From an archaeon (lineage in GTDB: Archaea > Asgardarchaeota > Thorarchaeia > Thorarchaeales > Thorarchaeaceae): a stretch of 32,000 bases of DNA. Shown here piece after piece: positions 7,895-26,672 of this stretch (position 1 is its first letter; each line of letters opens with the position of its first letter). The stretch lies in contig JAJRZD010000035.1 of assembly GCA_024275415.1 (NCBI GenBank), positions 32,886-64,885 on the forward strand, written 5' to 3'. Below the pieces are notes generated by a model that saw nothing but the letters and a program-made list of their open reading frames with translations, made no database searches and had not been told where the DNA came from. The translations under genes were made by a program, and so were the position numbers.

Positions 7895-7926
7895 AGGGAT
7901 GGACGAGTCCATCCCTCCTACTTTTT
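7895..7926 (+). terminator. Hairpin plus T-tract terminator
   Basis: Perfect inverted repeat AGGGATGGAC-GA-GTCCATCCCT followed by CCTACTTTTT. Confidence 0.6.
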
Positions 7927-10074: not shown

Positions 10075-10209
10075 TCTCTTCTTCTCCCGAACGTTAAAGG
10101 TACAAACCGAAACAACAAACCCCTAAATAAGCATTGAGGGAATTCGGGAACCTAAGAACGCTTATTTAGAAATTGACATATTTCGACTTGTCTTCAGGAG
10201 GTACAATAA

Positions 10210-10995: not shown

Positions 10996-11018
10996 CCAAT
11001 AGTTTGGAGTGAAGCGAA

Positions 11019-13853
11019 TTGGAATCCAAGAAGGTCATCATTGTACCACATACCCATTGGGATCGAGAATGGTATTTACCATTTCAAAGGTTCAGGCATA
11101 TGCTCGTTGAGCTTGTAGATGATCTTCTTGGAATTTTGAAGAAACAAGATTACAGGTTCATGCTTGATGGACAGACAATAATCTTGGAAGACTATTTCGA
11201 GATTCGCGAAGAGCGAAGGGATGAATTGCTTGGACATATTCGCGAAGGGAAAATTGCAGTGGGGCCGTGGTATTTGTTACCCGATCAATGGCTCGTTGGC
11301 GGGGAGAGTCTTATTCGTAACATCGAGTATAGTCATGACATTGCAACGCGTCTTCAGATTCCTCAGATGCCCATTGGATACCTCCCTGATATGTTCGGAC
11401 ACTCTAGCGCAATACCTCAAATATTGAGTGACCTTACGGATTTCAAAGCTGCTGTACTCTGGCGAGGTGTTCCCCCAGATATACAAACTGTTCTTTTCAA
11501 TTGGAAATCTCATGTATCGTCCACCGCTGTGATTCCTACCGTGTATCTCCCCGGAGGATACGGGAATGTTTCTAGATTGGCGGAGGAGTACAGTGAATTT
11601 GTTGATATGGTTATGGAGGGAATATCGTTCCTAGAGCCATTCTCCCCAGTGCCAGTCTATCTTCTGATGAACGGTTCTGACCACCTCTTTCCACAAGCTT
11701 TTGTCAAAGACAATGCAGACAGGATGAACCGTGAAGGCACTGACATCTCAGTAGGGTCTCTCAGCGACTTTGTCGAGCACTTGCAAAGTGCAATTGCTAC
11801 ATCAGGATATACACCTCCCCTGAAGAGTGGTGAGTTTAGATCCCCTGCTAGGGCTCCCCTGCTGCAAGACACATATTCTGCCAGAATGTGGATAAAGATC
11901 TGGAACCAGAAAGTAGAAGATATGCTGATTCGGCAGGTTGAACCTATTAGCACCTATCTATGGTTTGCATTGGATCAACAATACCCAAGCAGCTTCTTGA
12001 GTATTGCTTGGAAATGGCTATTGAGAAATCACCCTCACGATTCTATTTGTGGATGCTCTGTTGATAGTACGCATGAAGAGATGAAGGCACGTTTCTCTTG
12101 GGCTGAAACCATTGGAGAGGGCATTCTTGAGAAAGCAAATAAGATACTAGAAGAGAAATCTTTGAAATCTGATTTGGAATCATCCAATGTTCTGGTCTTC
12201 AATTCTGGAGCAAGTACGAGTTCTCCTGTCTACATCGAGTTTTCTGCCCCTCGAGAACAAACGATTGCTGGATTGCAGACCCCTGATGGAGTAATTCATG
12301 GCCTTCAACGACTTGAGTCGAGAGATGATGTCTTCTTTGAAACTACTGTGGGCATGAGAATGGCAAAGATGGGGCTGACTCTCATACCTGGAAGGAAGCT
12401 CATGAATTTCTACATCAACGGTGTTGAATTCTCCGATGGTGAGGATCCAGATGTTCTAGAATTGCGCTTTATCGCTGATGACCATCCAGAAGGGGATCTT
12501 GATTGGGAAGCCTTCAAACGGCAGGCACGTGATATCATTGCTAGCAAGAAGTACAAGAAAATCCATCTTGTCGCAGCACGTCCGACTCAGAGTGTGTATG
12601 CTGCAGTTATTCCTCTGCGGCCTTGGGCGTTCACTCGGCTCCTTCCTGTTTCAGAATCTCCAAGTGAAACTTGTGATGTACTTGAGGTCAGTGCCAATCA
12701 GATTAACAATCGTTTCTATTCTGTGACTTTCAACAGAGATGGGTCATTGAAGTTATTGGACAAGGAGTTAGGACTGACCTATGAACGACTCCATGTCTTC
12801 GAAGACTATGGGGATCGTGGGGACGAGTACACATTTGGTAGAGTGGAACCAGAGAAGGCATCTGTGAAAAACGTGAAGCGTGACGTTGTACTCTCCGGTT
12901 CGATCTTGGCAGAGATTCGACAGAAGATGGAGATTGAACTTTTTGAGAGTCTTGATTCATCAAGAGAGAAGCGTATTGGCAAAACGAGAATACCCGTAGA
13001 GTCAACGTTCAGATTCTATCGAGATACCCCACGAATCGAGGTGACCACTCGCCTTACAAACAAGTCGAAGGATCATCGGCTGCGGATTTGCTTTGACCTT
13101 CCCTACAAGTCAGCCACTTCCAAGACAGAAACCCATTTTGGTATCGTTGAACGAGTTTGTGACCCCGAACGAATCCCCGATGCTGAGGTACTAGAGAAGA
13201 CCAACTCATCATACCCCGAACGCCCCTCTGGTATCCAACCCCAAAAGCGATTCATCAGAGTTGATAATGATGATGGAGAAGGTGCGATCACTGTCTTCAA
13301 CACTGGTCTACCTGAGGTTGAGTTGGCAAATCGCAGCAGAATCGCAATAACACTTGTTCGTTCAGTTGGGTGGCTCTCTAGGGCTGATATCCCTGAGAGA
13401 CCTATCCATGCAGGACCTGGAATAGAAACTCTTGGTGCTCAAGAACTGGGAACCGAGTATGTGTACCACTATGGTTTTGCAACACACTCTAAGGAAGAGC
13501 CTATCCATACCAGTTCAAATATCGCGGATGCAGGTTGTGATAGACCCATAACGATGTACTTGAATTCATCAGACGAGGTTTCAAGGCTTTATGTTCCGAT
13601 CATTCAAATAGATAATCCTATTGTAAGAATCTCGTCCTTACGAGTCCGAGATGACTCGGTACTTGTAACAATGTATAACCTTGAGAATAGTGAAGTCACT
13701 GTCCTCATGAATCTTGAAGAATCTATCACAAAAGTAACCGAGGTTAAAATCAACAGGAGTATGAAGCAGGAGCATACAGTTAGGAATGGAATCGTGAATC
13801 TAACTTTCAGTCCTCGTGAAATAAAGATGTGTTCCCTACAACGAGGGGCGTGA
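11019..13853 (+). CDS. Glycoside hydrolase family 38 alpha-mannosidase
   Basis: Motifs HTHWDREWY, FMLDGQ, YLPDMFGH (nucleophile), NGSDH, HPHDSICGCSVD. TTG start after GGAGTGA. Confidence 0.92.
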   Translation: MESKKVIIVPHTHWDREWYLPFQRFRHMLVELVDDLLGILKKQDYRFMLDGQTIILEDYFEIREERRDELLGHIREGKIAVGPWYLLPDQWLVGGESLIRNIEYSHDIATRLQIPQMPIGYLPDMFGHSSAIPQILSDLTDFKAAVLWRGVPPDIQTVLFNWKSHVSSTAVIPTVYLPGGYGNVSRLAEEYSEFVDMVMEGISFLEPFSPVPVYLLMNGSDHLFPQAFVKDNADRMNREGTDISVGSLSDFVEHLQSAIATSGYTPPLKSGEFRSPARAPLLQDTYSARMWIKIWNQKVEDMLIRQVEPISTYLWFALDQQYPSSFLSIAWKWLLRNHPHDSICGCSVDSTHEEMKARFSWAETIGEGILEKANKILEEKSLKSDLESSNVLVFNSGASTSSPVYIEFSAPREQTIAGLQTPDGVIHGLQRLESRDDVFFETTVGMRMAKMGLTLIPGRKLMNFYINGVEFSDGEDPDVLELRFIADDHPEGDLDWEAFKRQARDIIASKKYKKIHLVAARPTQSVYAAVIPLRPWAFTRLLPVSESPSETCDVLEVSANQINNRFYSVTFNRDGSLKLLDKELGLTYERLHVFEDYGDRGDEYTFGRVEPEKASVKNVKRDVVLSGSILAEIRQKMEIELFESLDSSREKRIGKTRIPVESTFRFYRDTPRIEVTTRLTNKSKDHRLRICFDLPYKSATSKTETHFGIVERVCDPERIPDAEVLEKTNSSYPERPSGIQPQKRFIRVDNDDGEGAITVFNTGLPEVELANRSRIAITLVRSVGWLSRADIPERPIHAGPGIETLGAQELGTEYVYHYGFATHSKEEPIHTSSNIADAGCDRPITMYLNSSDEVSRLYVPIIQIDNPIVRISSLRVRDDSVLVTMYNLENSEVTVLMNLEESITKVTEVKINRSMKQEHTVRNGIVNLTFSPREIKMCSLQRGA

Positions 13854-13894: not shown

Positions 13895-14830
13895 TCACTT
13901 TAAATGAATTTCCTCACCATCAACTTCCACAATTCCATGTGAAACCATATCGTCTATGTGTTTCTCAAGCATATATTCCTCAAAGATCAGATACGCATCC
14001 ATCGGAATCCTCGGGTATATTGTTGGCACTCTCGCTAGACTTCGGATTGTATTGATTCCCTGCCTGATGTTCTGGATAATCCTTTGTTCTCTCTCGTCGA
14101 AAATTGCTAAATACTGCAATAGACGTTCACGCAGGTTCGTTTCAATAGGATTTAGCAAATGGCTGCTAATTCCCACTTTTGGCTCAAGGGCCAAGATTCG
14201 CTGAATTGATTCCCTGAATTCATGGATATCGCTTACTGCATTTCCATACCACGGGCCAAACCGCGTTAGATCAATATCAACCAAGAATACGATGTCAGTC
14301 CCATTGATTCCAAAAACAGTATGATCCTTTGTGTGCCCGGGAGCATGTACCGGAATAAGTTCTGTTTCTCCGAAGGAGATGGTTTTTCCACTTTCAAAGA
14401 AACCTGTCACTTGATAATCCTCCACTACATGGGGGAGTCTTATGTCTATGAGTTCCCTCCAACTCGAATAATACTGGTGTCCCTTGATTCCATAGAACTC
14501 GACTGTTCCGTCTAATGATTCTATTCCCTGTTTGGCAAGGGGATGACAAAGTAACTCACACTGAGATAGATTCATGATTTCTGCTGCATGCCCCTTGTGG
14601 TCTACATGGAAATGTGTTAGAATGATCTGGTCAATATCCTTCATAGCATGTCCGCAGCTTTGCACTGTCCTCTCGATGTTTCTAAGGGACGATCCTGCAT
14701 CAACCAGTACGAGTATCTCATCATCAATGAGAAGTGAATTCGCTTCGGGGAACCTTGCTCTATTCTCTCCTCTGATCAAGTGTACATTAGGGGCTATCTC
14801 AATGTGAGGCTCGTATTCTTCTGTCATCAT
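13895..14830 (-). CDS. MBL-fold metallo-hydrolase
   Basis: THFHVDHKGH (HxHxDH), HAPGHTKDH, and a later Asp and SSH. Confidence 0.88.
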   Translation of the reverse strand: MMTEEYEPHIEIAPNVHLIRGENRARFPEANSLLIDDEILVLVDAGSSLRNIERTVQSCGHAMKDIDQIILTHFHVDHKGHAAEIMNLSQCELLCHPLAKQGIESLDGTVEFYGIKGHQYYSSWRELIDIRLPHVVEDYQVTGFFESGKTISFGETELIPVHAPGHTKDHTVFGINGTDIVFLVDIDLTRFGPWYGNAVSDIHEFRESIQRILALEPKVGISSHLLNPIETNLRERLLQYLAIFDEREQRIIQNIRQGINTIRSLARVPTIYPRIPMDAYLIFEEYMLEKHIDDMVSHGIVEVDGEEIHLK

Positions 14831-14924
14831 TTAGAGCAAAATATGCATTGATGATAATCTTGTCGTATACATTGATATTGCACCAAGTCCAATGGCAGTT
14901 TGTAAATCGTATAAGGTGAACCGA

Positions 14925-16382
14925 ATGAGCAGTAGGATCTTTGCTGTATTTGATATTGGCACAACAGGTACTCGGTCAGTTCTTGTCGATGAGGAAGGTC
15001 GTGAGTTAGCAAAGGAGTATGAAGAATATCCTCCGACGCCGCGGGATCTCAAGGTTCACGAGCAAATTGCAGATGTGTATTGGCGAACTGCCTGTAATAC
15101 CATGCAAAGAGCTTTAACCTCATTGGATGGGGGTGCTGATGCGATTGTCAGTGTAGTGGTGACAACCACACGAGATTGTGTCACGCCCGTTGATAAAGAT
15201 GGGAACGCACTTGCACCAACGGTGACTTGGGTTGACAATCGTTCGAGTCCCCGAAGCAAAGAGATGGCTGCTGAGATTGGTCCACGGAAGACTGTGAATA
15301 AGATAATGTGGTTCATTGACGAGAGACCCGACCTCTTTGAAAATGCATACAAATTCGTGCATCTTGATGCTTTCATCAATAACAGGTTATGCGGTTCGCT
15401 TGTGAGTGAGCCTGCGAACGCGAGATACGGTCCTATAGACCATGAAACACTACGCTGGTCTGAGGATCTTTGTGAAACGACAGGAATACCCCTCGATAAG
15501 CTTGTAGATATTGTGAATCCGGGTGAGGTCATTGGGGAAATCACAAGGGATGCATCAAAGGCAACAGGACTGCGCAGTGGCACGACAGTCATTATGGGAT
15601 GTGGGGATCAACAATGTTCTGCATTGGGAACTGGTACGATCAGGACCGGGATCGTCAAGGCGACCACGGGTACAGGAACATTTGTCATCACTCACACAGA
15701 GGAATTCATTGAAGACCCCTACGTCATGTTCTCAAATCCCTCTGCCATGCCCGGAAAGTGGATTCTCGAAGGTGCGATTCCAGGAACTGGTCTGGCATAC
15801 AAATGGTATCGTGACAACTATTGTGAAATCGAGGTGGCACAAGCGCTTCAAAGCGATAAGGATGTCTACGAGATAATCGAGTCGTCCGCCGCATCCATTC
15901 CTGCTGGCAGTGACGGACTGGTGGTCTTTCCATTCATGGCGTACAACAAAGGAATCTTCTACAATCTCGGATTTGGTCACACCAAATCACATGTTGCCAG
16001 GGCCATCATGGAGGCAAATGGGTACGGGATTCGGATGTATTGTGAGATGATTGAAGGGATGCTTGATATCGAATTCGACGAGCTACGGATTGATGGAGGT
16101 GGCTCCAACTCTCCGTTATGGCGGCAGATCCAAGCTGACTGCACGAACAAGACCGTTCTCCTTCCTCGTTCTAGAGATTCCACTGCGATTGGTGCAGCAA
16201 TTTTGGGGACAGTCGGTTCTGGAGTCTATGGGAGTTTCGAAGAAGCCGTTTCAAACATGGTCCATATCGTAGAACGCAGGGCACCGATCCCAGAGAATCA
16301 TGCAATCTATGAACAGCAATATACAATCTACAACAAGTTGCTCATTGCAGAGATGCCAGCACTCATCGAACTCACATCTTGA
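14925..16382 (+). CDS. FGGY family carbohydrate kinase (glycerol kinase/xylulokinase-like)
   Basis: Motifs DIGTTGTR, GCGDQQC, TTGTGTF, IDGGGSNSPLWRQIQAD. ATG 14925 follows AAGGTGAA; the ORF track starts at 14892. Confidence 0.9.
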   Translation: MSSRIFAVFDIGTTGTRSVLVDEEGRELAKEYEEYPPTPRDLKVHEQIADVYWRTACNTMQRALTSLDGGADAIVSVVVTTTRDCVTPVDKDGNALAPTVTWVDNRSSPRSKEMAAEIGPRKTVNKIMWFIDERPDLFENAYKFVHLDAFINNRLCGSLVSEPANARYGPIDHETLRWSEDLCETTGIPLDKLVDIVNPGEVIGEITRDASKATGLRSGTTVIMGCGDQQCSALGTGTIRTGIVKATTGTGTFVITHTEEFIEDPYVMFSNPSAMPGKWILEGAIPGTGLAYKWYRDNYCEIEVAQALQSDKDVYEIIESSAASIPAGSDGLVVFPFMAYNKGIFYNLGFGHTKSHVARAIMEANGYGIRMYCEMIEGMLDIEFDELRIDGGGSNSPLWRQIQADCTNKTVLLPRSRDSTAIGAAILGTVGSGVYGSFEEAVSNMVHIVERRAPIPENHAIYEQQYTIYNKLLIAEMPALIELTS

Positions 16383-16478
16383 ATCAATCATATCTGCCGA
16401 AAGCCTTGTATTGCCGTGGGGACTGCATATGACAGTCTTCAGTAGCCAACCGAACGTATTGCTGGACAACACGGAGTC

Positions 16479-18140
16479 TTGAGCATATTGACCGAGTTTG
16501 ATGTGATTGTTATTGGCGGTGGAAGCACTGGTACTGCTGTTGCACGGGACTGTGCTATGCGTGGTTTGAAGACCCTTCTTTTGGAGCGTGATGATATTGC
16601 ATCTGCGACTGTTGGGACTTGTGCTGGCATGATAAGTTCTGGGTTCAAGTACTACCATGAGCCCGATATTATGGACTTGTGCTCTCACGAAGTGGTTCAT
16701 CTCAAGCACATAGCCCGACATATCGTAGCTAAACTTCCAATCCTGTTCCCATTGATGGACTTGAGCGAAATCTCATCTGGCGGCAAAGGGATGGAAGAAT
16801 ATGAGAAGCGCGTGCAGGAACGGGGTGTTCCTCCTGTTCTAATCCTGACTCCTGAGGCATCGCGTGAGATTGAACCGTCTCTCCATCCAGAGCTGATTGC
16901 AAGTGGTTATGTCGAGGAGTTCTTTATTGACCCTTTCCGGCTTTGCGTCCTACAGGCAAAAGATGCTGAACAGCATGGAGCAACAATCCGTACTTATTGT
17001 GAAGTCACAGCAATCGATATTCGAAATGGTGCAGTCCACACTGTGACCTATTTTAACAGGATGACTGGCACTCTTGAAACGGTTGAAGCCAAGGTAGTCA
17101 TTAGCGCTACTGGTCCATGGGCGAGTGAGATCGCACGATTAGCAGGTATTTCATTAGAGCTTCGGCTGAACAAGGGCGCTCATGTCATCTTGGATCGGCG
17201 AGTCACCAATGTTGGAATTTCCACGCGAGCAGTTGATGGAAGATGGGTCTATCTGTTCCCGCATGAGAATACCACACTCATAGGGACTACTGCACTTGAT
17301 ACTTGGGATAACCCTGATGAGCTTGTTACCTCTCAGGACGAGATCGAGTATCTTCTACGTAGTTTTGAATTCGTTGTCCCGTCTGTCCGCGAGGCTCGAA
17401 TCATCCGGACCATGGAAGGTGTCCGACCGATGGCCCCCGTCTGGAAAGTTCCAGAAGGTGAAGTTACTCGGGGTTATGAGATTATCGACCATGGACAGGA
17501 TGGAGTTTCCGGTTTCTACTCATTCATTGGTGGAAAGCTGGTGATGTGCAGACATATGGCAGAAGCCGTCACTGATATTGTATGTGAGCGACTTGGTGTG
17601 ACGGGTTCTTGTGAAACTCATATCAAACCTCTACCAGGGATGTCTGAGGAGGTCGATGTGTTGATGCTAGCAGAGAAATATGGTGTGCCGTCGCATGCCC
17701 TTGAACGCCTCAAGGCCAGAAGAGGCTCCGAATTGGTTGAGATTCTTGAGATGACCCGTGAACACCCTGAGTGGACGAACATGGTGTGCATATGCGAACC
17801 TGTGATGGATGCTGAGATCCGCTATGCTATCCGAACCGAATATCCCCAAACATTGAACGACCTGCGAAGAAGGGTTCGATTGGGAACTGGCCCCTGCCAA
17901 GCAACATTCTGTACATTCAAAGCTGCCTCAATCATGGCAGAGGAACTAGGTCTTACTGGAAGTCAGACCCATTCGGAGATTGTTGATTATCTATCTGAAC
18001 GTTGGAAAGGAAAGCGACCCCCCCTACGAGGCGCAGCACTGGCTCAAGAGGAGATTGTCAATGGGATATATGCGTGTGTTGGAAATCTTGAGCAAACTGT
18101 CATTGATTACGAGCCAAAGCCATGGGAGGAGATTCGTTAG
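16479..18140 (+). CDS. glpA: Anaerobic glycerol-3-phosphate dehydrogenase subunit A
   Basis: IGGGSTGTAVARDCAMRG FAD site, NKGAHV, GVRP, GGKL, and C-terminal BFD-like CICE...GTGPCQATFC. Confidence 0.88.
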   Translation: MSILTEFDVIVIGGGSTGTAVARDCAMRGLKTLLLERDDIASATVGTCAGMISSGFKYYHEPDIMDLCSHEVVHLKHIARHIVAKLPILFPLMDLSEISSGGKGMEEYEKRVQERGVPPVLILTPEASREIEPSLHPELIASGYVEEFFIDPFRLCVLQAKDAEQHGATIRTYCEVTAIDIRNGAVHTVTYFNRMTGTLETVEAKVVISATGPWASEIARLAGISLELRLNKGAHVILDRRVTNVGISTRAVDGRWVYLFPHENTTLIGTTALDTWDNPDELVTSQDEIEYLLRSFEFVVPSVREARIIRTMEGVRPMAPVWKVPEGEVTRGYEIIDHGQDGVSGFYSFIGGKLVMCRHMAEAVTDIVCERLGVTGSCETHIKPLPGMSEEVDVLMLAEKYGVPSHALERLKARRGSELVEILEMTREHPEWTNMVCICEPVMDAEIRYAIRTEYPQTLNDLRRRVRLGTGPCQATFCTFKAASIMAEELGLTGSQTHSEIVDYLSERWKGKRPPLRGAALAQEEIVNGIYACVGNLEQTVIDYEPKPWEEIR

Positions 18141-19478
18141 ATGGATGCAGATTATGATATTGTTGTGATTGGTGGTGGGTTGGCCGGCCTCACAGCAGGG
18201 ATATCAGCGGCCCAGATGAATGCTAATACGCTGGTCGTTCGTAAAGGAGAGGGTGCTACCTCATTATCCTCTGGGGCTTTGGATATTGCCGGATATCTAC
18301 GCGGCGGTGAAACCCCTTTTCTTACTCCTGAGGAAGGAGTCGCTGCATTGGCCCATGTTTATCCATTTCATCCCTATTCAGTGCTTGAGAGCATTCCTTC
18401 TCTTGGTCTGAAAGAGATCGTTTCGTGGCTCAAAGACATACTCGCTGGTTCTCCGTCTGCAATGATTGGCAGCCACGACACAACAACCATGGCATTGACA
18501 ATTCTAGGCACAAAAAAACCGACTTGTCTTGTTCAGAGAACAATGCATACTACTCGCTTGGATAACACTGATGAAACGCTTCTTTTTGCAGGGATTAAAG
18601 GACTGGCGGACTTCAATCCGTCCACTGCATCAAAAGCGTTGATGGAATCCGTTATTGCTGGTGAAACTGGTCCTCACAAGATTGTGCATACTCTACTGGA
18701 ATGTAGTCCCTTTCGCCAACCCTCCAATATCTCACCAGTCGAACTAGCACGATACATCGAAACCGAGGATGGGTTGGATAGGATCATAAAAGAGCTTCAG
18801 CATTGTACTGAGCAGACCGGAACAACTCTAATCGCTCTGCCCCCAATTCTTGGTTTGGTCAATCCTATTGAAATAAAGAAGCGAATCGAGGAAGAAACTG
18901 GGACAGAGATTTTCGAGCTGTTATCTTTTCCCCCCTCTGTCCCAGGCTACCGGTTACAAAGGTCTCTTGAAGCATCGTTGAAGAAAGCAGGAGGGACTCT
19001 TCTGGTCGGTCATGAGGCTGTTTCATTCAAGAAGCAGGAAGGCAAGATCATTGATATCACTTTGAAGAGCCCTCGCAGGACATTCAATACACACCCGAAA
19101 AGTGTCATTCTGGCTACTGGCAAGTTTGTTGGAGGTGGACTTGCAGGGAATCGAACAGGGCTTAGAGAAACCGTCTTCGATCTACCTGTTCTGGATGGGA
19201 CGCGCCAATCTGTTCAAGATGTCAGACCATCTCATTTGACACGAGTTGTCCCATTGCACAAGGAAGGTCACCCTCTCTTTGAATGCGGTATTGGGTTCGA
19301 CACCCGCTTCAGGCCAATCGATGTCAAAGGCGACATCTTCGCATCGAATCTCTTTGCTGCGGGTTCTGTCCTTTGCGGATACAACTATCCCGTAGAAAAG
19401 AGCGGGTTGGGAGTAGCGCTTGTCACTGGAAGAATATGTGGTGTTCATGCAGCGGAGAATGTCACAGGAGGGAACTAA
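18141..19478 (+). CDS. glpB: Anaerobic glycerol-3-phosphate dehydrogenase subunit B
   Basis: IGGGLAG, SLSSGALD, PPSVPGYRL, LATGKFVGGGL, NLFAAGSVL..Y, G.GVALVTG. Confidence 0.88.
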   Translation: MDADYDIVVIGGGLAGLTAGISAAQMNANTLVVRKGEGATSLSSGALDIAGYLRGGETPFLTPEEGVAALAHVYPFHPYSVLESIPSLGLKEIVSWLKDILAGSPSAMIGSHDTTTMALTILGTKKPTCLVQRTMHTTRLDNTDETLLFAGIKGLADFNPSTASKALMESVIAGETGPHKIVHTLLECSPFRQPSNISPVELARYIETEDGLDRIIKELQHCTEQTGTTLIALPPILGLVNPIEIKKRIEEETGTEIFELLSFPPSVPGYRLQRSLEASLKKAGGTLLVGHEAVSFKKQEGKIIDITLKSPRRTFNTHPKSVILATGKFVGGGLAGNRTGLRETVFDLPVLDGTRQSVQDVRPSHLTRVVPLHKEGHPLFECGIGFDTRFRPIDVKGDIFASNLFAAGSVLCGYNYPVEKSGLGVALVTGRICGVHAAENVTGGN

Positions 19479-20711
19479 GTGGACGAAGAAGAAGCCTATG
19501 CACATGTCAGGAATACACTCAAAGAAGAGCGAATGATGCCGTTCTCCACCTCTGAAATGGAAGTGGTTCGATCCGTAGGACAATGTATCAACTGCGGTAC
19601 TTGCCTCAATCACTGCCCTGTAACGCGTGCTGTGGGAGTTGAGAGATTCACAGGCCCTCGGGGAATAGCTGTGGAACTTAGTCGTTCCCCTCCCGAGTAT
19701 TGGTCTAGTACCGACAGAATCTACCTTTGTACGGGCTGTGGTACATGCCGGGAAGTATGTCCAAAAAATGTTGACATACCGAATGTCGTGAATCTTATGA
19801 GGCGACGCATCTTCTCCCAGCGTCCTGATCTCGTTCCTCAAAGCCTACATCAGCAGAACGAGATTCTTCGAAAGCATAATCTTGCATTTGTTCCATGGGA
19901 TGACCCTGACGAGAAAGCAGAAAGCAGGAATATGCGTCTTGAGCGACTCGACCTACCTTTCATCAAGGACAAGATTCGAAAGGGAGCAGAGGTACTTTTC
20001 TATCCTGGCTGTCAGGCTGAAGAACGTGCTCAGGAGGTTCGAGAGGCAGCAAAAATAATCCTTGAACGGTTCAATGTTGATTATACTCTCGTTGAGAAAA
20101 TGACCTGCTGTAGCCTGCCAGCAATACTGGTGGGTGACATGGAAAAGTCCATCGAGCTGTCTACCATTCTCAAGAAGCAGATTGATGACCTTGGAGTTAA
20201 GAAGATAGTCACAACTTGCGCAGGCTGTACATCGAACCTTAATGAGATTGCAGCACGAAACAATTGGGAAATTCCTGTCTATCATATCCTTGAGTTTCTA
20301 GTCGAAGACATAGGTGTTCATGAGGTATCTAAAGCACTCTCCCCCATGGATGACCATACTGTGAGGGTAACTGTTCATGATCCTTGTCACCTCATCCGCC
20401 ATACATCCCGTCGGGTTCTCGAGTATGCCCATCGCCTACTGAATGCAATACCTGATGTGGAGGTGGTCGAGTCAAGTGCACACGACCTGTGTTGTGGAGG
20501 TGGCGGATTGGTCGGAAGGCATTCTCCTGACGTGTCGCGTGTGATAGTGAAAGAAAATATCCGAGCAATCAAAGAAACCTCAGCTGAGCGTATAGTAACT
20601 CCCTGCCCTCTTTGCACTGCGCAGATTGAGGAATCCCTTTTCAGAGATGGTAGTGACATCGAAGTGGATGATCTAACTGTATTCATCGCTCAGAGTTTTG
20701 AAGGAGGCTGA
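19479..20711 (+). CDS. glpC: GlpC-like Fe-S subunit (two 4Fe-4S motifs plus two CCG domains)
   Basis: CINCGTCLNHCP, CTGCGTCREVCP, YPGC/CC/CAGC and HDPCH/CCGGGG/CPLC. Directly follows glpB. Confidence 0.75.
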   Translation: MDEEEAYAHVRNTLKEERMMPFSTSEMEVVRSVGQCINCGTCLNHCPVTRAVGVERFTGPRGIAVELSRSPPEYWSSTDRIYLCTGCGTCREVCPKNVDIPNVVNLMRRRIFSQRPDLVPQSLHQQNEILRKHNLAFVPWDDPDEKAESRNMRLERLDLPFIKDKIRKGAEVLFYPGCQAEERAQEVREAAKIILERFNVDYTLVEKMTCCSLPAILVGDMEKSIELSTILKKQIDDLGVKKIVTTCAGCTSNLNEIAARNNWEIPVYHILEFLVEDIGVHEVSKALSPMDDHTVRVTVHDPCHLIRHTSRRVLEYAHRLLNAIPDVEVVESSAHDLCCGGGGLVGRHSPDVSRVIVKENIRAIKETSAERIVTPCPLCTAQIEESLFRDGSDIEVDDLTVFIAQSFEGG

Positions 20712-22143
20712 TGGGTTGATTGGCGCCAAACGAAAGACAATTGCAGCAGAACGAATTGCTGGTGTCATAGGGAACGATTTTGTCACAATTCACGAAACCG
20801 ATGCGTTGTTGACCTCTGTCGATGCATGGCCGTTGAGCCTAGCAAAGATCAGGGCTGGAGAGTTAATCCCCTTTGCAGATATCGTGGCATATCCCCATAA
20901 TGTGGAGGAGGTTTCCCAGATTCTTGCTATATGCAGTGAGCTTGAGATTCCCGTGACTCCAGTCGGAGGCGGTGCAGGAAGCTGTGGGGGAATCATCCCT
21001 GTATACGGAGGCCTTCATCTAGACCTGAAGCGTATGAATAGGATCATTGGCATAGATCATGACTCGATGGTCGTTCGGGTCGAGGCTGGAGTAGTTGGGA
21101 TTGATTTGGAGGAACATGTCAACCGTTTCGGTTATACCACTGGTCACACGCCCACTTCGTTGAGAGCATCCAATGTGGGAGGCTTTCTTGCAACACGGTC
21201 TGGGGGGTCGATGTCATCACTTTACGGGAAGATTGAGGACATGACGTTGGGTCTCCAAGTTGTTATCCCAGATGGCTCTATCATCGAATGCAAGGCTGTT
21301 CCGCGCCATTCGGTAGGTCCTGATCTAAAGCAGGTGTTCATTGGTTCCGAAGGTACGTTGGGTGTTATCACAGAAGCCACGTTGCAACTGTTCCCGATAC
21401 CAGAAGAACGACGATTCAGGAGCATGTGCTTTCCTGACATAACCAGTGGGCTGGACGCAATACGAAGCATCTTCCGAGCTGGGATTCGTCCCTCCGTGGT
21501 CAGATTGTATGATGAAACTGACACCGCAATGTCGATAGCACCACACTTTGAGGTGGATGACGAGTCCTGCATGTTGCTTCTTGCATTCGACGGCTCAAGA
21601 GAACGAGTGGCCCTCGATGAACAGCAATCAGCAAATATCTGTCAGGCGCACGGTGCGCAGGACTATGGTGATGGGCCATCTCGGAGATGGTGGGAGCATC
21701 GATATGACATGTACTATCCATCGAAATTCCTGACATCAGGCTATTCGATTGCCGATACCATTGATGTGGTTGCAACCTACGACCGGCTGGAGAGAGTCTA
21801 TTGGTCAATGAAAGAGGCGATGGAATCGGAAGGTGCCATTGTTCTCTGTCATTTTTCACATATGTATCTACATGGCGGAAGCATGTACATGATATTCTTC
21901 TCCTCACAACCTGATGCCGAGTCCTTGTGGTCCACATACGAGCGTATCTGGCATGCGGGGATTGAGGCATGTCACAAAGAAGGTGGAGTAATGAGTCATC
22001 AGCACGGAGTAGGTCTTACCCGTAGCACATACACTGAGGATGAACTGGGCAGTAGTTTCCATGTTCTTAAGATGATAAAACAAGCTCTTGACCCGAAAGG
22101 TATCATGAACCCCGGAAAGCTGGGCATGGGGGTACAGAAGTGA
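20698..22143 (+). CDS. FAD-binding oxidoreductase, alkyl-dihydroxyacetonephosphate synthase (AGPS)-like
   Basis: PVGGGAGSCGG, GHTPTS...VGGFLATR, GSEGTLGVITE, PSVVRLYD, CHFSHMY..GGSMY, SHQHGVG, LDPKGIMNPGK. Confidence 0.85.
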   Translation: MKEADGLIGAKRKTIAAERIAGVIGNDFVTIHETDALLTSVDAWPLSLAKIRAGELIPFADIVAYPHNVEEVSQILAICSELEIPVTPVGGGAGSCGGIIPVYGGLHLDLKRMNRIIGIDHDSMVVRVEAGVVGIDLEEHVNRFGYTTGHTPTSLRASNVGGFLATRSGGSMSSLYGKIEDMTLGLQVVIPDGSIIECKAVPRHSVGPDLKQVFIGSEGTLGVITEATLQLFPIPEERRFRSMCFPDITSGLDAIRSIFRAGIRPSVVRLYDETDTAMSIAPHFEVDDESCMLLLAFDGSRERVALDEQQSANICQAHGAQDYGDGPSRRWWEHRYDMYYPSKFLTSGYSIADTIDVVATYDRLERVYWSMKEAMESEGAIVLCHFSHMYLHGGSMYMIFFSSQPDAESLWSTYERIWHAGIEACHKEGGVMSHQHGVGLTRSTYTEDELGSSFHVLKMIKQALDPKGIMNPGKLGMGVQK

Positions 22144-23264
22144 TGGATTCAGAACAATATGCCGACCAGATACGCCTCTGTGCATCGTGTCCAAAACTAT
22201 GTCGTCATGTATGCCCGACTTTTTCTGCTTGGCGATCTAATGCCCCAACGCCACACGGTCGTGCCATCTTGCTCCACTATGAGGCAGTGGGAGCACGAAA
22301 CCTTGATGATCGAGCGGTCGAAGTGATTTATCAGTGCCTACAATGCAGTCATTGTTTGACTTGGTGTATCCCCGAGGTCGATATTGCAAGCATCGTTGAG
22401 ATGACACGTGAACGGCTGGTTTCAGAGGATAGATATCCGTCAGGTCTGGACAGACTAAAACAATCTGTGGACGCAAACCATAACCCATTTGGTGAGCCCC
22501 ATGGGACTAGAACCTCTTGGTATGTGACTGAGGGAGGCGAGGTAACACGGATTGTCTATTTCACTGGGTGCACAGCGTCATACAGAGAACAGTCCATTGC
22601 TGTGGCCACAGTCGAACTCCTACGTTCCATCGGCTATCAGGTATTAGTCTTGGATGATGAGTGGTGTTGCGGGTCTCCCTTGCTCAGGACCGGCTTTGTT
22701 CCCGATGCATTGGTGCAGGCTGAACATAACGTTGAGGTGCTCAACTCAATTGACGCCGAAGCGATAGTCGCCACTTGTCCGGGGTGCTACAAAACATTGG
22801 TGAAAGACTATCCCGAACACGGACTGTCCATTCGCATTCCTGTAAGACACATCTCCGATCTATTGGATGAAAAGCTATCTGCCCTCGATGAGAGTGACTT
22901 CTCCGAGGTCATTACATATCACGACCCGTGCCATCTAGGACGGCATTCTGGAGTGTACGATGCTCCTCGCGAAGTGATCAGGAAGATTTCAGGGGTTGAG
23001 GTTTCTGAGATGAAACGGAACCGAGAGAACGCAACCTGCTGTGGGAATGGAGCAGGGCTTCGTACGTTGTTTCCAGATGCAGCGAAACGAATCGGAAGCT
23101 CTAGGATACAAGACGCTAAAGATGTAGGCGCGAGGGTCTTGGTGACCTCCTGTCCGTTCTGCAAGAATATGCTCAAGGGCCAGGCTGATGAGTCGCTAGA
23201 TGTGTTCGACTTGCCTGAATTCGTACTTGGAATGACCCAACGCCTCAATCAGAAAGATGAATAA
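22143..23264 (+). CDS. (Fe-S)-binding protein with CCG domains (GlpC/HdrD-like)
   Basis: CASCPKLCRHVCP, CLQCSHCLTWC, FTGC/CCG/CPGC, HDPCHLGR/CCG.G.G/CPFC. TGATG overlap with the upstream gene. Confidence 0.88.
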   Translation: MDSEQYADQIRLCASCPKLCRHVCPTFSAWRSNAPTPHGRAILLHYEAVGARNLDDRAVEVIYQCLQCSHCLTWCIPEVDIASIVEMTRERLVSEDRYPSGLDRLKQSVDANHNPFGEPHGTRTSWYVTEGGEVTRIVYFTGCTASYREQSIAVATVELLRSIGYQVLVLDDEWCCGSPLLRTGFVPDALVQAEHNVEVLNSIDAEAIVATCPGCYKTLVKDYPEHGLSIRIPVRHISDLLDEKLSALDESDFSEVITYHDPCHLGRHSGVYDAPREVIRKISGVEVSEMKRNRENATCCGNGAGLRTLFPDAAKRIGSSRIQDAKDVGARVLVTSCPFCKNMLKGQADESLDVFDLPEFVLGMTQRLNQKDE

Positions 23265-23285
23265 GCCAAATGAGGTAATCACACA

Positions 23286-24404
23286 ATGACTACAATGGAT
23301 CACGACGAAGCACTGTACCTGAAGATTAGATTGTTACTTGAAGGTGCTGTCATCCCAGAAGGATTCTCAAGGGGACGTAAGGGAGGAGCTGGCCCTGTGG
23401 GAGGTAGATACTTCATGCTCCCTAATGGAAGTCTGTGTGGGATTCCCATCCGCACAAGTGAACAGGCTCGAATCTTCAATTCCTCGAACTTGGAACCACT
23501 TGAAGATGATAAGTGGCGGTACGATTCGAAGTACATCGTAACAGAGATTCCCACTCCAGAAATCTATCAGCATTCAACAAAAGATGGAATCGACTATGGC
23601 AAGATTGCTCTTCTTCATGGAACCGAATGTCTAGCCACAACAGTATTCCAGTCGTGTAAATACTGGTCTACAGGTGACCAATGCAAGTTCTGCACGATAC
23701 CCACCTCGTTTTTGAGCGGGAATACAATCAAAGAGAAGACGCCTGAGCAGATTGCAGAGGTCGTCAAGCAAGGGTTGAAGGATGGTATTATCAAACATGT
23801 CTTGCTCACGACCGGAACCTCTGAGGGTGAGGATATGGGAATTGAGCGGCTGGTCAGTATTGCAGAAGCAATCAGGGAGTTCAGCAACATTCCTATCGCA
23901 GTACAGTTCGAGCCACCGGAGGACACTTCGTATCTGAAGAAATTGGCTGATGTAGGTGTGAATGCAGTCGGCATCCATCTTGAGAGTGCCGATGAAAAGA
24001 TACGTTCCGAGATGTGTCCTGGCAAGTACAGGTACGGCTCTTTTGAGCTGTACAATAGGACTTGGGATGCTGCAAGAAAGTACTTCAAGAAAGGTGATGT
24101 TTCGACATTTCTTCTCTTTGGTCTCGGAGAGAATCTAGAACAAACGATAGATCTGTGTGAGTACCTTGCTCAAAAAGGCATTCTTCCAGTTGTTACTCCA
24201 TTCAGGCCCGCTCCCGGAAGCCAGCTTGCAGACTTTGTTCCGCATTATGTCGGACGGCTAGACGAGTCCGTTGAGTTTTATAAGAAACTGGGAACAATCC
24301 TTTTCAAACATGGCTTGGATCCTAAGAGCACTTCTGCCGGATGCTCACGATGTGGTGGCTGTACGCCGATGCAGGATGCATATAACTGGGCAAGCCATCA
24401 ATGA
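23286..24404 (+). CDS. Radical SAM protein, MSMEG_0568-like
   Basis: KIALLHG..CLATTVFQSC, non-canonical C-x8-C-x2-C motif, and C-terminal GCSRCGGC. Confidence 0.8.
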   Translation: MTTMDHDEALYLKIRLLLEGAVIPEGFSRGRKGGAGPVGGRYFMLPNGSLCGIPIRTSEQARIFNSSNLEPLEDDKWRYDSKYIVTEIPTPEIYQHSTKDGIDYGKIALLHGTECLATTVFQSCKYWSTGDQCKFCTIPTSFLSGNTIKEKTPEQIAEVVKQGLKDGIIKHVLLTTGTSEGEDMGIERLVSIAEAIREFSNIPIAVQFEPPEDTSYLKKLADVGVNAVGIHLESADEKIRSEMCPGKYRYGSFELYNRTWDAARKYFKKGDVSTFLLFGLGENLEQTIDLCEYLAQKGILPVVTPFRPAPGSQLADFVPHYVGRLDESVEFYKKLGTILFKHGLDPKSTSAGCSRCGGCTPMQDAYNWASHQ

Positions 24405-24427
24405 CACTAAAGTAGAGGGTCTGGACA

Positions 24428-24928
24428 GTGAATGACTTTGTTCTTTCCCATGAAGAGATCCGCATCATAGAATTCTCAGAAGAGGATGCCGAGGAGATAT
24501 CGCAACTATTCCGAGAGGTCTGGCCACAGGCTACTGAGTACCCCGAGGGATGGAGGAAGAAGCGGATGTACTCGGCTGAACAGATCATCGATGATATGCG
24601 GAATGGATACCATTACTTTGGATCACGATTACAGGGACGAATCGTTGGTGTCTATAAGGCACTAATTACCGACAAGGGTCTCTTTGGGGAGCATCAAGCC
24701 GTAAGTGCGGAATACCGGAACTCTGGACTTGCCTCTGCAATGTATGTACAGTTTGCTGAATACGGGAAAGCCCATGGATGCAAAAGGAACTATTGCAATA
24801 TCCTAGTTGGTCATAAACCGAGTGAGCGACTGATGAAGCACTTTGGATTCTGCCCGTGGGGTGAGCCCTATGAGCAGTATCCGGGGATGCAGGTTCAGAT
24901 GTATGAACGTCCTTTGGACGAGGAATGA
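24428..24928 (+). CDS. GNAT family N-acetyltransferase
   Basis: Acetyl-CoA motif A AVSAEYRNSGLASAM, with later 'LMKHFGF'. Confidence 0.8.
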   Translation: MNDFVLSHEEIRIIEFSEEDAEEISQLFREVWPQATEYPEGWRKKRMYSAEQIIDDMRNGYHYFGSRLQGRIVGVYKALITDKGLFGEHQAVSAEYRNSGLASAMYVQFAEYGKAHGCKRNYCNILVGHKPSERLMKHFGFCPWGEPYEQYPGMQVQMYERPLDEE

Positions 24929-25004
24929 CCACAACAATATACCGGAATACTCATAGATGTTACAAGTTACAATACTCGCTTACATCCGTTGAGGTATGCT
25001 GCTG

Positions 25005-26672
25005 ATGAATCTATTCTCTATCTTGGTGGACGGAAAAGAGATTGATACTGGGAACTATGTGACCTTTCCTGATATGAATCGTGTAATAGAAGACCCTGGG
25101 TTAGCCATTGCACTACAGATGCGGAGCATACCCTTTTTTCAAAGACTGATGATTTCTCGGGCCACACGTTTGATTCCGGAGAAATCTCCTGAACTTCGAT
25201 ATCTGAAAGACTTTGTGAAGGCGCATGGCGTTCCCAATTACTCGAAAGACGAGATTGATGAGGTTGCCTTTGCTCAGGTCGCTATCGCACGTGAATCGGA
25301 CATCAATGAGGCGCTTGACGCAGGGGTTCGTGACCATGGTCATCTTTTCAATCCTTTCATGGTCGAGGGAATGGGAGTCACCCTTGACGAGCGTGTCGAG
25401 GCGTTATATCAGGCTGGGCTTGCAGTGAAGGATCATTTCAAAGAGGTTCGCGACATATCTGTTAAGGAGGGAGTGCCCATTGGCACATTCAACTGGACTT
25501 GGGAGATGTTCACTGAGTACTTGGAGAAAGAAACCTTTGAGCTATGGGGCAAAAGCCTCGATATTGTAGAAGCACCTGGCCGGGACGGAGGTAAGAACTT
25601 CAGATTTCGTGAACCTTATGGAGTGGCCTGTCTGTTCACACCGTATAATTCTCCACTGGCTTTGGGAATTCTCAGCATCACATCATCGATTCTGGCAGGT
25701 AATGCTACTATTCTGAAGCCTCCAGCAAAAGTGCCCCTCAGCACGATTATACTCGGTAAGATATTCATGGAGCGATTCTTGGACATGGGGCTTCCTTCAG
25801 CCATGATCCAAGTCATCACAGGCAGTGGGAAGAGGCTGATGAACCGATTCATGAGCGATTCTCGAGTTGGAACCATCGTGTGGTATGGAGATAGTGACAG
25901 AGGGCTTCAGTTGTGGTCAGATGCAGTCGCTCGCAGAATACAGATGGCCCCCGAACTTGCTGGAAGTGATGCAAGTCTTGTCTGGGGTAAGGATGTGGAC
26001 TTGAGTTTTGCAGCAAAGATGATTGTGAAAGGACGATATTTGGGAAGTGGACAGGCGTGCATGGCTGTGAAACGACTACTTGTCCAAGATACGCTGTATA
26101 AGGATCTCCTTCACTTGGTGATTGAAGAAGCGGAAACTCTTAAGGTAGGTCTCCCTTCAAACCCCGATGTCACACTCCCACCAGTAGGGCTGACTGCATT
26201 GTACCTCCTCATAGATCAGATGAAAGACGCTCAGGCGAAAGGAGCTATGGTCGAAACAGGTGGTTATCGGATGAATTATCTTGGAGAAGAAGACCCTGCT
26301 GGATTGTTCTACAAACCTACAATCTTGACGAATGTCACACTTGATATGCGAGTCATGAAGGAAGAGGTCTTCGCACCAGCACTGCCAGTCATGAGCGTGT
26401 CCAGTGTCGAGCAAGCCATATCGATTGCAAATGCCACTCGGTTCGGTCTGCGTTCATCAATCTTTACAGACGACTCCAATGTCAGGATGGCGTGGGTAAA
26501 GGGAATACAAGCTGCTGGAGTAAACGTTGGGCAGGATCATCTCTATTTCGATCCACATATGCCTCATCTTGGAGGCTATAAGGACTCGGGGATAATTGGT
26601 GGCAAGTACTTTCCTGAGATGCTTACTCGGATGAAGTATGTACATACGGGCCCCGGAATTCAACTTGAATGA
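25005..26672 (+). CDS. Aldehyde dehydrogenase family protein (divergent)
   Basis: REPYGV...PYNSP, ILKP, ELAGSDA (Glu), GQACMA (Cys), EEVFAP, FGLRSSIF. GAGGT SD spacing favours ATG 25005 over 24996. Confidence 0.88.
   Translation: MNLFSILVDGKEIDTGNYVTFPDMNRVIEDPGLAIALQMRSIPFFQRLMISRATRLIPEKSPELRYLKDFVKAHGVPNYSKDEIDEVAFAQVAIARESDINEALDAGVRDHGHLFNPFMVEGMGVTLDERVEALYQAGLAVKDHFKEVRDISVKEGVPIGTFNWTWEMFTEYLEKETFELWGKSLDIVEAPGRDGGKNFRFREPYGVACLFTPYNSPLALGILSITSSILAGNATILKPPAKVPLSTIILGKIFMERFLDMGLPSAMIQVITGSGKRLMNRFMSDSRVGTIVWYGDSDRGLQLWSDAVARRIQMAPELAGSDASLVWGKDVDLSFAAKMIVKGRYLGSGQACMAVKRLLVQDTLYKDLLHLVIEEAETLKVGLPSNPDVTLPPVGLTALYLLIDQMKDAQAKGAMVETGGYRMNYLGEEDPAGLFYKPTILTNVTLDMRVMKEEVFAPALPVMSVSSVEQAISIANATRFGLRSSIFTDDSNVRMAWVKGIQAAGVNVGQDHLYFDPHMPHLGGYKDSGIIGGKYFPEMLTRMKYVHTGPGIQLE

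Follow-up and report, generated by a model that had tools for sequence, protein, structure and literature searches.

Within the window, as we call the whole 32,000-nucleotide stretch analysed here (contig JAJRZD010000035.1, assembly GCA_024275415.1), six neighbouring genes encode an FGGY-family kinase, the three GlpA-, GlpB- and GlpC-like subunits of a glycerol-3-phosphate dehydrogenase (G3PDH), an AGPS-like flavoprotein and an iron-sulfur (Fe-S) protein with CCG domains. These six genes form a conserved unit in Asgard archaea, and its minimal kernel is the kinase, the AGPS-like gene and the CCG gene. The unit is tentatively read as a sequential pathway that phosphorylates a small analogue of glycerol, other than glycerol itself, and oxidises it step by step, with a probability of roughly 0.45. 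The window forms the end of a 64.9-kb contig in a 3.5-Mb, 93%-complete assembly. Its source is a Thorarchaeota (Asgard) archaeon, and the closest relatives of the flavoprotein, 65-83% identical, come from Thorarchaeota metagenome assemblies.

All steps of the proposed mechanism are inferred from family membership and gene context. The kinase, which is not of the GlpK type, would phosphorylate a small glycerol-like compound, either a glycerol substituted on an end carbon or a short polyol. The diverged GlpABC would then oxidise the hydroxyl adjacent to the phosphorylated carbon, giving a ketone of the dihydroxyacetone phosphate (DHAP) type. The AGPS-like enzyme, with its conserved Tyr/Arg/His site, would attack the carbon across the carbonyl and, unlike AGPS, would turn over as a dehydrogenase that delivers electrons to its own CCG Fe-S subunit. 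A three-carbon unit at the DHAP level would be released into central metabolism, which fits the genes for triose-phosphate isomerase and fructose-1,6-bisphosphate (FBP) aldolase/phosphatase that neighbour the unit in another Thorarchaeota genome (locus L087). The glycerol skeleton might carry as its extra group a glycosyl or alkyl residue or a short chain of carbons like that of C4-C5 polyols.

The AGPS-like flavoprotein and its iron-sulfur partner

The flavoprotein gene (20716-22143, + strand) encodes 475 residues with the domains FAD_binding_4 (PF01565) and FAD-oxidase_C (PF02913); a TTG start at 20698 is also open, and homologues are 475 residues long. The best relatives of solved structure are AGPS from Dictyostelium (218 bits) and guinea pig (201 bits), followed by mouse D-lactate dehydrogenase (165 bits). 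The catalytic columns of AGPS were located by means of the mutant chains 4BCA and 4BC7 (R419H, Y578F). Residues R263 and Y391 of the query align with R419 and Y578 of the guinea-pig enzyme (R352 and Y508 in Dictyostelium), and H430 corresponds to guinea-pig H617, the last His of the HHH loop. Both the catalytic Arg and the catalytic Tyr are invariant in alignment A1. The His-His-Glu metal site of the GlcD, D-lactate and D-2-hydroxyacid dehydrogenases was not found, two of its three positions being occupied by Tyr and Gln; a GlcD-type outgroup reads H..H..E, whereas the AGPS-like clade reads R...Y...xHH. Because R263, Y391 and H430 are equivalent to the catalytic residues of AGPS, and other residues stand where D-lactate and D-2-hydroxyglutarate dehydrogenases have their metal ligands, a DHAP-type site is predicted in the flavoprotein. 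A methylglyoxal bypass was rejected as an account of the locus. It would cast the metallo-beta-lactamase (MBL)-fold hydrolase next to the cluster as glyoxalase II, the aldehyde dehydrogenase (ALDH) at its end as lactaldehyde dehydrogenase and the flavoprotein as D-lactate dehydrogenase, but the flavoprotein lacks the D-lactate dehydrogenase metal site, and the MBL and ALDH genes lie outside the conserved unit.

In a tree of 82 homologues from named genomes, the AGPS-like clade and the GlcD-type proteins are split with a support of 100. The flavoprotein is assigned to the AGPS clade on these grounds, and the label "AGPS-like" given to it in a first-pass annotation of the window is a fair one, AGPS being the best solved relative. 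Among the 150 nearest cluster representatives at 50% identity, Arg and Tyr occur together in 140 and the HHH loop in 135. A large prokaryotic family thus bears this signature, and ether-lipid synthases are only a part of it. In the literature searched, no biochemically characterised prokaryotic AGPS-like enzyme was found. A structure model of the flavoprotein has a pLDDT of 88, a size like that of D-lactate dehydrogenase, and the PCMH/VAO fold with its flavin adenine dinucleotide (FAD) and cap domains. Foldseek TMq values were 0.86-0.88 against AGPS (4BBY, 5AE3) versus 0.84 against mouse LDHD, so that in the model the fold alone does not discriminate between AGPS and D-lactate dehydrogenase.

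The resemblance to AGPS is incomplete. The alignment begins at residue 125 of the Dictyostelium and residue 197 of the guinea-pig enzyme, and the flavoprotein therefore lacks the N-terminal domain found only in AGPS, a helix of which gates access to the C16 channel (PMC3509576). The second essential AGPS Arg (R447 in Dictyostelium) is not kept, S336/K337 standing in its place, and the loop reads HQH in Thorarchaeota versus HHH in AGPS.

These features bear on the proposal of the first-pass annotation, an O2-independent catabolism of glycerol ether lipids. A 1-O-alkylglycerol would be phosphorylated and oxidised at C2 to alkyl-DHAP, and its ether bond would be broken by the AGPS-like enzyme, either by the covalent-flavin route of AGPS with water as the acceptor or by oxidation beside the ether oxygen with electrons passing to the CCG protein. 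The products would be a DHAP-level three-carbon unit and a fatty alcohol or aldehyde, fed through the ALDH into beta-oxidation. The three core activities map one-to-one onto such a route, the catalytic Arg and Tyr are retained, and VAO-family flavoenzymes can cleave ethers oxidatively. [quoted passage not shown] That description gives AGMO as the only known ether-cleaving enzyme for these compounds and as tetrahydrobiopterin-dependent (PMC3617469). Nothing relevant on anaerobic alkylglycerol degradation, or on Rv2251/glpD1, was found in the literature searched beyond PMC8151288. On the other hand, the absent gating domain, the lack of an R447 equivalent and the HQH loop all speak against a long-chain ether substrate, and we regard ether catabolism as rather unlikely. 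The grouping of kinase, G3PDH and AGPS-like genes and the retained Arg/Tyr pair lend the earlier proposal support; the missing gating domain, second Arg and HHH loop and the predicted net redox turnover do not.

The last of these points rests on the partner protein. The gene for the CCG/4Fe-4S protein (22140-23264, +; two Pfam CCG domains and Fer4_8) overlaps the flavoprotein stop by 4 bases. Adjacent AGPS-like and CCG genes recur in Loki genomes, Clostridia, Spirochaetota, Planctomycetota and Myxococcota, and P0153 is a single fused protein of AGPS-like, Fer4_8 and CCG parts. Complex prediction scored the flavoprotein/CCG pair at 0.93 versus 0.01 for the best of three controls; the mark applied lets through 58 of 80 solved complexes and 2 of 110 mismatched pairs. 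At least 98% of contacts are shared between runs, with a partner pLDDT of 91 or more, and the ferredoxin-like N terminus of the CCG protein is modelled on the FAD domain; this result may partly be a recall of solved, similar flavoprotein/Fe-S complexes. In one Clostridia locus and in Escherichia coli, an electron-transfer flavoprotein (ETF) takes the place of the CCG protein as neighbouring electron carrier. Because the partners of the flavoprotein are Fe-S proteins or ETF, net redox turnover is predicted, and the flavoprotein is read as the catalytic subunit of a dehydrogenase with the CCG protein as its electron-transfer partner. A dedicated Fe-S partner is not needed for the acyl/alkyl exchange catalysed by AGPS and argues for net redox turnover instead; the predicted Fe-S-coupled turnover is the main mechanistic departure from the earlier scheme.

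Elsewhere in the window's genome, on contigs C62, C99, C9, C116, C21, C1 and C6, an FAD-linked oxidase is paired with a CCG protein about ten more times, at approximately 25% identity to the window's pair. These pairs represent a large expansion of GlcD/GlcF-like dehydrogenase modules. With about ten other such pairs in the genome, the pairing is taken to be the standard dehydrogenase design of the lineage.

A kinase and GlpABC diverged from the glycerol route

The kinase gene (14892-16382, +; Pfam FGGY_N and FGGY_C) has LsrK (223 bits), XylB (207) and GlpK (152) as its best NCBIfam matches, all far under the respective cut-offs; for the GlpK equivalog model TIGR01311 the score is 152 against a cut-off of 590. 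Compared with Thermococcus glycerol kinase, the R, W, GDQQ and TGTGxF elements are kept, a D stands for an E, and the loop that bears the Tyr-Phe motif is missing. In the kinase tree, the window protein is sister to Loki kinases that adjoin AGPS-like and CCG genes, with a support of 100. It is classified as a member of an Asgard-specific FGGY branch and not as a GlpK equivalog. To our knowledge, no FGGY kinase acts on a lipid, and the nearest, Lokiarchaeial relatives adjoin an MFS transporter and an alpha/beta hydrolase rather than lipid genes; both points count against an alkylglycerol as the substrate. Most "glpK" genes of Loki- and Thorarchaeota have been interpreted as carbohydrate kinases, with bona fide GlpK homologues in only four Lokiarchaeota genes (Manoharan et al., PMC6737245).

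The GlpA-like FAD/2Fe-2S subunit (16479-18140, +) carries DAO, DAO_C and Fer2_BFD domains and is 35% identical to E. coli GlpA. It scores below the equivalog cut-offs of both TIGR03377 (417 versus 553) and NF008313 (364 versus 425), and it reads GTCAGMISSGFKY where E. coli and canonical Asgard GlpA have GRNHGLLHSGARY. The GlpB-like FAD subunit (18141-19478, +) passes TIGR03378 with 215 against a cut-off of 174 and is separated from GlpA and GlpC by 0 bases. The GlpC-like Fe-S subunit (19479-20711, +) has two 4Fe-4S motifs and two CCG domains (Pfam CCG twice, Fer4_8); its best NCBIfam matches are TfrB and LdhH, and the GlpC models score 125 and 85 bits, under their cut-offs.

Genomes from three other Asgard families (G038, G006 and G041) contain a second kinase-GlpA-GlpB-GlpC operon beside the AGPS-linked one (loci L104, at 7321-12721, L105 and L106). 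There the GlpA is canonical, with a TIGR03377 score of 616 against the cut-off of 553, 41% identity to the E. coli protein and the motif GRNHGLLHSGARY kept, whereas its AGPS-linked counterpart in the same genome reaches 443 and has GxCAGMISxGxKY, as does the GlpA of the window. The kinase of the canonical operon matches in type, at 57% identity, a kinase that the window's genome encodes on contig C106. Because other Asgard genomes hold a canonical kinase-GlpABC operon as well, the cluster is interpreted as a specialised paralogue of the kinase-GlpABC route and not as the plain glycerol route. Use of plain glycerol, offered earlier as the simpler alternative, does not sit well with genomes in which the canonical operon and the AGPS-linked cluster occur together. 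A specialised paralogue would also be expected by the ether proposal and counts in its favour.

Two further FGGY kinases of the window's genome were observed. The C106-type kinase adjoins a LarA-like nickel racemase. A third, on contig C83 (L005, 2927-6026), is convergent with a RuBisCO-like protein (MtnW/type III-like) and divergent from formate-tetrahydrofolate ligase and FolD, and this locus may belong to a sugar-acid or apiose-like pathway.

A search of the window's genome revealed no second GlpA-like gene and no canonical GlpA. This is among the observations that would suit a parallel oxidation, in which GlpABC acts on sn-glycerol-3-phosphate (G3P) and the AGPS-like/CCG pair is an independent dehydrogenase for another three-carbon phosphate, both yielding DHAP; an example would be sn-glycerol-1-phosphate (G1P) from archaeal lipids or from phosphatidylglycerol head groups. 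Each of the two flavoproteins has its own CCG subunit, the unit at L087 lies beside the triose-phosphate isomerase and FBP aldolase/phosphatase genes, and DHAP, whose skeleton is bound by the AGPS site, would be the product. Against it, genomes with a canonical GlpABC still hold the diverged GlpABC in the AGPS-like cluster, a duplicate that is hard to explain if both oxidise the same compound, and we know of no polyol-phosphate dehydrogenase in the VAO family. The Loki- and Thorarchaeota genomes are moreover all reported to encode glycerol-1-phosphate dehydrogenase (PMC6737245). Parallel oxidation is considered unlikely, and the sequential oxidation of a glycerol analogue is preferred.

Conservation of the unit in Asgard archaea and bacteria

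The pathway first suggested for the window comprised nine co-oriented, mostly abutting genes. Coordinates together with Pfam and NCBIfam matches, which back every domain assignment, confirm the nine genes on the + strand, with successive gaps from kinase to ALDH of 96, 0, 0, about 4, -4 (an overlap), 21, 23 and 67 bases. No public sequencing runs were listed for 14892-24800. What is conserved as a unit, however, is six genes and not nine, because radical SAM, GNAT and ALDH genes were found in the cluster only in the window's own family. A flavoprotein orthologue is present in 114 of 201 genomes of the phylum. The full arrangement of MBL (-), FGGY, GlpABC, AGPS-like, CCG, radical SAM, GNAT, ALDH and rsmB is found again at three loci of the window's family (L001, L088 and L089). 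At L002 and L003 the genes from kinase to GNAT are kept, and the ALDH at the corresponding place is inverted and 39-40% identical. A complete Thorarchaeota genome (L087) has the FGGY, GlpABC and AGPS-like genes only, followed on the opposite strand by triose-phosphate isomerase and the archaeal FBP aldolase/phosphatase.

Outside the window's family, the same six genes occur together in four other Asgard families (f7, f19, f13 and f15; flavoprotein identity 43-49%), rearranged in one of them. The flanks read in these other families hold unrelated housekeeping genes such as ArsA ATPase, M42 peptidase and LplA. Two further Asgard families have FGGY, AGPS-like and CCG genes alone, one of them with a neighbouring G3PDH of a different type (DAO plus BFD with a Pyr_redox_2 protein). 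Lokiarchaeial genomes show the order unknown-AGPS-like-CCG-FGGY. The first gene of this series, immediately 5' of the other three, encodes a conserved protein of about 495 residues with no Pfam match (L011, 8356-9834; L099, 7317-8804; L100, 7620-9116), which may be an unrecognised fourth component.

The neighbours of 63 AGPS-like and 22 GlcD-type loci from named genomes were surveyed. A GlpA- or GlpD-like gene was found within 3 kb at 38 of the 63 AGPS-like loci versus none of the 22 GlcD-type loci (Fisher p about 1e-7, a value inflated by relatedness), and a kinase at 36 of 63 versus 1 of 22. These 36 kinases divide into 15 of the FGGY family and 21 lipid kinases of the DAGK_cat/YegS type. 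The triad of kinase, G3PDH and AGPS-like gene is present in 28 bacterial loci, and three G3PDH architectures adjoin AGPS-like genes: GlpD, GlpABC and DAO-BFD/Pyr_redox_2. The bacterial GlpD-like neighbours retain the canonical motif SSKLxHGGLRYL. Genes for a kinase, a G3P-type dehydrogenase and an AGPS-like flavoprotein thus form a genuine association that is ancient and widely distributed. The remark that related groupings exist in other prokaryotes and lack a biochemical demonstration was correct, as PA3026-PA3023 of Pseudomonas aeruginosa, the E. coli ygc cluster and the 28 bacterial triads illustrate.

From this recurrence, the AGPS-like family is predicted to act on a phosphorylated substrate supplied by the adjacent kinase. 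Fusions of the AGPS-like protein to a PfkB kinase (P0243) and to a Cof-type HAD phosphatase (P0198) are found, and other relatives adjoin an RpiR regulator, KduI, class II aldolase, PfkB and MFS_2 transporters. In P0121/P0122 the FAD domains are doubled in tandem, and a CCG gene comes next; for the distant representatives P0124 and P0121 the gene context comes from short contigs. Because of the PfkB and HAD fusions, of the MFS_2, RpiR, KduI, aldolase and PfkB neighbours, and of the MFS transporters and short-chain dehydrogenase/reductase (SDR) of the ygc cluster, a soluble substrate is suggested for these relatives, and in most AGPS-like branches the substrate looks soluble and sugar-like.

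The actinobacterial form, GlpD-like <- TetR / AGPS-like -> lipid kinase, we take to be the Rv2249c-Rv2252 arrangement of Mycobacterium tuberculosis. A DAGK/YegS lipid kinase also belongs to the module of one Bacteroidota genome. At an Acidimicrobiia locus (L018, 12686-14119) a cyclopropane-fatty-acyl-phospholipid-synthase-like (CMAS) gene was noted after the GlpD, AGPS-like and FGGY genes. In P. aeruginosa, PA3026-PA3023 encode an FAD oxidoreductase, a GlpD homologue, an FGGY kinase and a YegS lipid kinase, and the regulator GliR (PA3027) activates them more than 40-fold together with phospholipase C (PMC8151288). Deletion gave no phenotype, glycerol included, and the authors suggested in silico that PA3026 makes alkyl-DHAP (PMC8151288).

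That suggestion, made for PA3026-PA3024, and the resemblance of the flavoprotein to AGPS would fit a biosynthetic module leading from glycerol through G3P, DHAP and perhaps acyl-DHAP to alkyl-DHAP as an ether-lipid precursor. Neither a DHAP acyltransferase nor a fatty-acyl reductase was found in the window, the other Asgard clusters or the bacterial loci examined. Partners of the Fe-S or ETF type imply a net oxidation, the flavoprotein has no gating domain, archaea build their ether lipids with the GGGP and DGGGP synthases on G1P (PMC6737245), and the P. aeruginosa deletion was silent (PMC8151288). A biosynthetic role is accordingly very improbable.

Several observations weigh against the sequential oxidation of a soluble glycerol analogue. 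Three G3PDH architectures have been recruited beside AGPS-like genes, which is simplest if all oxidise plain G3P and, with the canonical motif in the GlpD-like neighbours, favours parallel oxidation. Since the cluster GlpA is the sole one in the window's genome, which has no canonical GlpA, the cluster may also serve plain G3P there. The placement of the Thorarchaeota flavoprotein among the AGPS-like subclades is not settled in the 82-homologue tree. Some 20 actinobacterial loci have a DAGK_cat/YegS lipid kinase beside the AGPS-like gene, and in P. aeruginosa the lipid kinase and the co-regulation with phospholipase C point to lipids in that branch (PMC8151288). The substrate may be a lipid in the actinobacterial/Pseudomonas branch, and the lipid kinases of the Actinobacteria, the Bacteroidota genome and P. 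aeruginosa, with the co-activated phospholipase C, are further points for ether catabolism.

Surroundings of the unit and comparison with known systems

The ether proposal also drew on the genes around the unit. Downstream lie a radical SAM protein gene of the MSMEG_0568/TIGR04043 kind (23286-24404, +), a GNAT acetyltransferase gene (24428-24928, +; Pfam Acetyltransf_1) and the ALDH gene (24996-26672, +; Pfam Aldedh), which encodes 558 residues with a long N-terminal region. The radical SAM protein scores 278 against a cut-off of 303.7 for TIGR04043 and passes NF045502 (159 versus 125), and its nearest Atlas clusters are the MSMEG_0568 family. It carries a Cx8Cx2C motif (CKYWSTGDQCKFC) instead of the usual Cx3Cx2C and a C-terminal CSRCGGC (CxxCxxC), and its best 120 homologues are all from Thorarchaeota; its matches in the Protein Data Bank (PDB) were dismissed as spurious repeat matches. 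The GNAT gene is a single copy in the window's genome, is present at L001-L003, L088 and L089, absent at L087 and in other Asgard families, and always adjoins the radical SAM gene. A GNAT partner is also known from Nit1C/MSMEG_0567-0568 clusters, and no nitrilase accompanies the radical SAM/GNAT pair of the window. In the ALDH the catalytic Glu and Cys motifs are kept. Its best PDB matches are archaeal ALDH, GAPN, D-glyceraldehyde dehydrogenase and lactaldehyde dehydrogenase, not fatty-aldehyde enzymes, so that its assignment to a fatty-aldehyde step gives way to a resemblance to dehydrogenases of three-carbon aldehydes. Radical SAM, GNAT and ALDH were found as additions to the unit only in the window's family, and the link of the ALDH to the operon is loose; it is not a stable member of the unit.

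Upstream are genes for a nitroreductase, SCP2, a 3-hydroxyacyl-CoA dehydrogenase, two enoyl-CoA hydratases, a thiolase with DUF35, GH38 and, on the - strand and divergent from the kinase, the MBL-fold hydrolase (13895-14830; Pfam Lactamase_B), whose PDB matches to LACTB2 and glyoxalase II are weak. The SCP2, beta-oxidation, MBL and GH38 neighbours are thus present as described at first, and the window contains neither an alcohol dehydrogenase nor an acyl-CoA ligase gene, as was also stated; five AMP-binding genes lie elsewhere in the genome. The 3-hydroxyacyl-CoA dehydrogenase gene (5733-6857) is interrupted by a single in-frame TAA at 5997-5999 (context ADLVI*AIFENMEV), for which a nonsense mutation, an error of assembly or recoding could account.

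Conservation of these neighbours is uneven. Inside the window's family, an enoyl-CoA hydratase and the MBL hydrolase are conserved neighbours, which speaks for ether catabolism; the MBL gene is present at L001, L003, L088 and L089 and absent at L087 and in other Asgard families. GH38 is missing from all five other loci of the family with the upstream flank read (L001, L003, L087, L088 and L089), and the thiolase set is missing from L003 and L089. Most of the beta-oxidation genes, like GH38, are not conserved neighbours of the module. The beta-oxidation, SCP2 and GH38 genes are local synteny outside the functional unit. A functional region for the disassembly of whole glycolipids, comprising GH38, MBL and beta-oxidation genes, was rejected, with GH38 and thiolase unconserved and the flanks in other families of the housekeeping kind. 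The same findings count against ether catabolism, as do the absence of the ALDH, radical SAM and GNAT genes from the unit at L087 and in other Asgard families, the housekeeping flanks there, the type of the ALDH and the in-frame stop in the hydroxyacyl-CoA dehydrogenase.

Directly after the ALDH stop, with a 0-base gap (26672/26673), follows rsmB, encoding a 16S rRNA methyltransferase, an adjacency kept in related genomes; rsmB/TatD/PAC2 synteny is retained in five of six related loci. Because this housekeeping gene abuts the ALDH, abutment alone is no evidence of common function, and tight spacing in the Thorarchaeota lineage also joins functionally unrelated genes.

The module has been seen in the literature before, as the GliR regulon of P. 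aeruginosa. What is new, as far as we found, is that a six-gene unit occurs across Asgard archaea, that some genomes carry it together with a canonical glp operon, that its GlpA has a diagnostic change, and that there is evidence for an Fe-S-coupled dehydrogenase character of the AGPS-like enzyme. AGPS-clade flavoproteins with the catalytic residues of AGPS are very common in prokaryotes. Kinases and glycerol-phosphate dehydrogenases are linked to the family in Asgard archaea, in Actinobacteria (mycobacteria among them) and in Bacteroidota, Myxococcota and Pseudomonas, so that knowing the substrate would annotate thousands of genes at once. Canonical and AGPS-linked operons within single genomes provide a clean built-in experimental control. 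For Asgard archaea, the question touches on the debated handling of G3P-type (bacterial and eukaryotic) versus G1P-type (archaeal) glycerol backbones. That the operon as a whole performs O2-independent cleavage of glycerol ethers, with the kinase and a specialised GlpABC yielding 1-O-substituted DHAP and an AGPS-derived flavin/Fe-S enzyme breaking the ether, is decidedly unlikely in our estimate. If true, Asgard archaea and many of the bacteria with the triad could feed on ether lipids that accumulate in anoxic sediments; an ether-lipid substrate would make this the first anaerobic route of ether-lipid cleavage and would affect the reading of sediment lipid biomarkers.

Of the known systems, AGPS itself (EC 2.5.1.26; 2UUU, 4BBY) shares with the window flavoprotein the two-domain PCMH/VAO FAD fold, the best sequence match among solved structures, the catalytic Tyr, Arg and last His of the HHH loop, and the lack of the metal ligands of the D-lactate dehydrogenase branch. 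The window protein differs in its length (475 versus 584-658 residues), in lacking the N-terminal domain, the gating helix and a cap insertion, and in having Ser/Lys for R447 and HQH for HHH. It has a dedicated Fe-S partner, which the redox-neutral AGPS does not need, and its gene lies with those of a kinase and GlpABC instead of FAR or GNPAT. The GlpABC-plus-kinase systems of E. coli and of the canonical Asgard operons (L104-L106) have the same three subunits in the same order behind an FGGY kinase, and the window operon matches this A-B-C layout, its GlpB passing TIGR03378; the differences lie in a GlpA under both equivalog cut-offs and changed at GRNHGLLHSGARY, a kinase from another FGGY branch and the attached AGPS-like and CCG genes.

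PA3026-PA3023 likewise combines an FAD oxidoreductase, which its authors compare to alkyl-DHAP synthase, with a GlpD homologue and an FGGY kinase in one operon (PMC8151288). It differs in a dehydrogenase of the GlpD type, the absence of a CCG partner, an additional YegS lipid kinase, the co-regulation with phospholipase C and an aerobic host. The E. coli ygc cluster (ygcN-ygcO-ygcP, ygcQ-ygcR-ygcS-ygcU-ygcW, yqcE-ygcE) contains YgcU, which is 30% identical to the window flavoprotein and shows the R/R/Y/HHH signature, the FGGY kinase YgcE (26% identical) and an electron-transfer partner; here an ETF and ETF-QO-like pair replaces the CCG protein, a G3PDH gene is lacking, and two MFS transporters, an SDR and an antiterminator are present. 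A similar logic is seen in the erythritol pathway of Brucella, in which the FGGY kinase EryA is followed by the GlpD-like dehydrogenase EryB and by EryC, which acts next to the new carbonyl. Both schemes would proceed from a kinase through a G3PDH-like oxidation of a polyol phosphate to an enzyme acting at the carbon adjacent to the carbonyl, but the third enzyme is a TIM-barrel protein in Brucella and a flavoprotein here.

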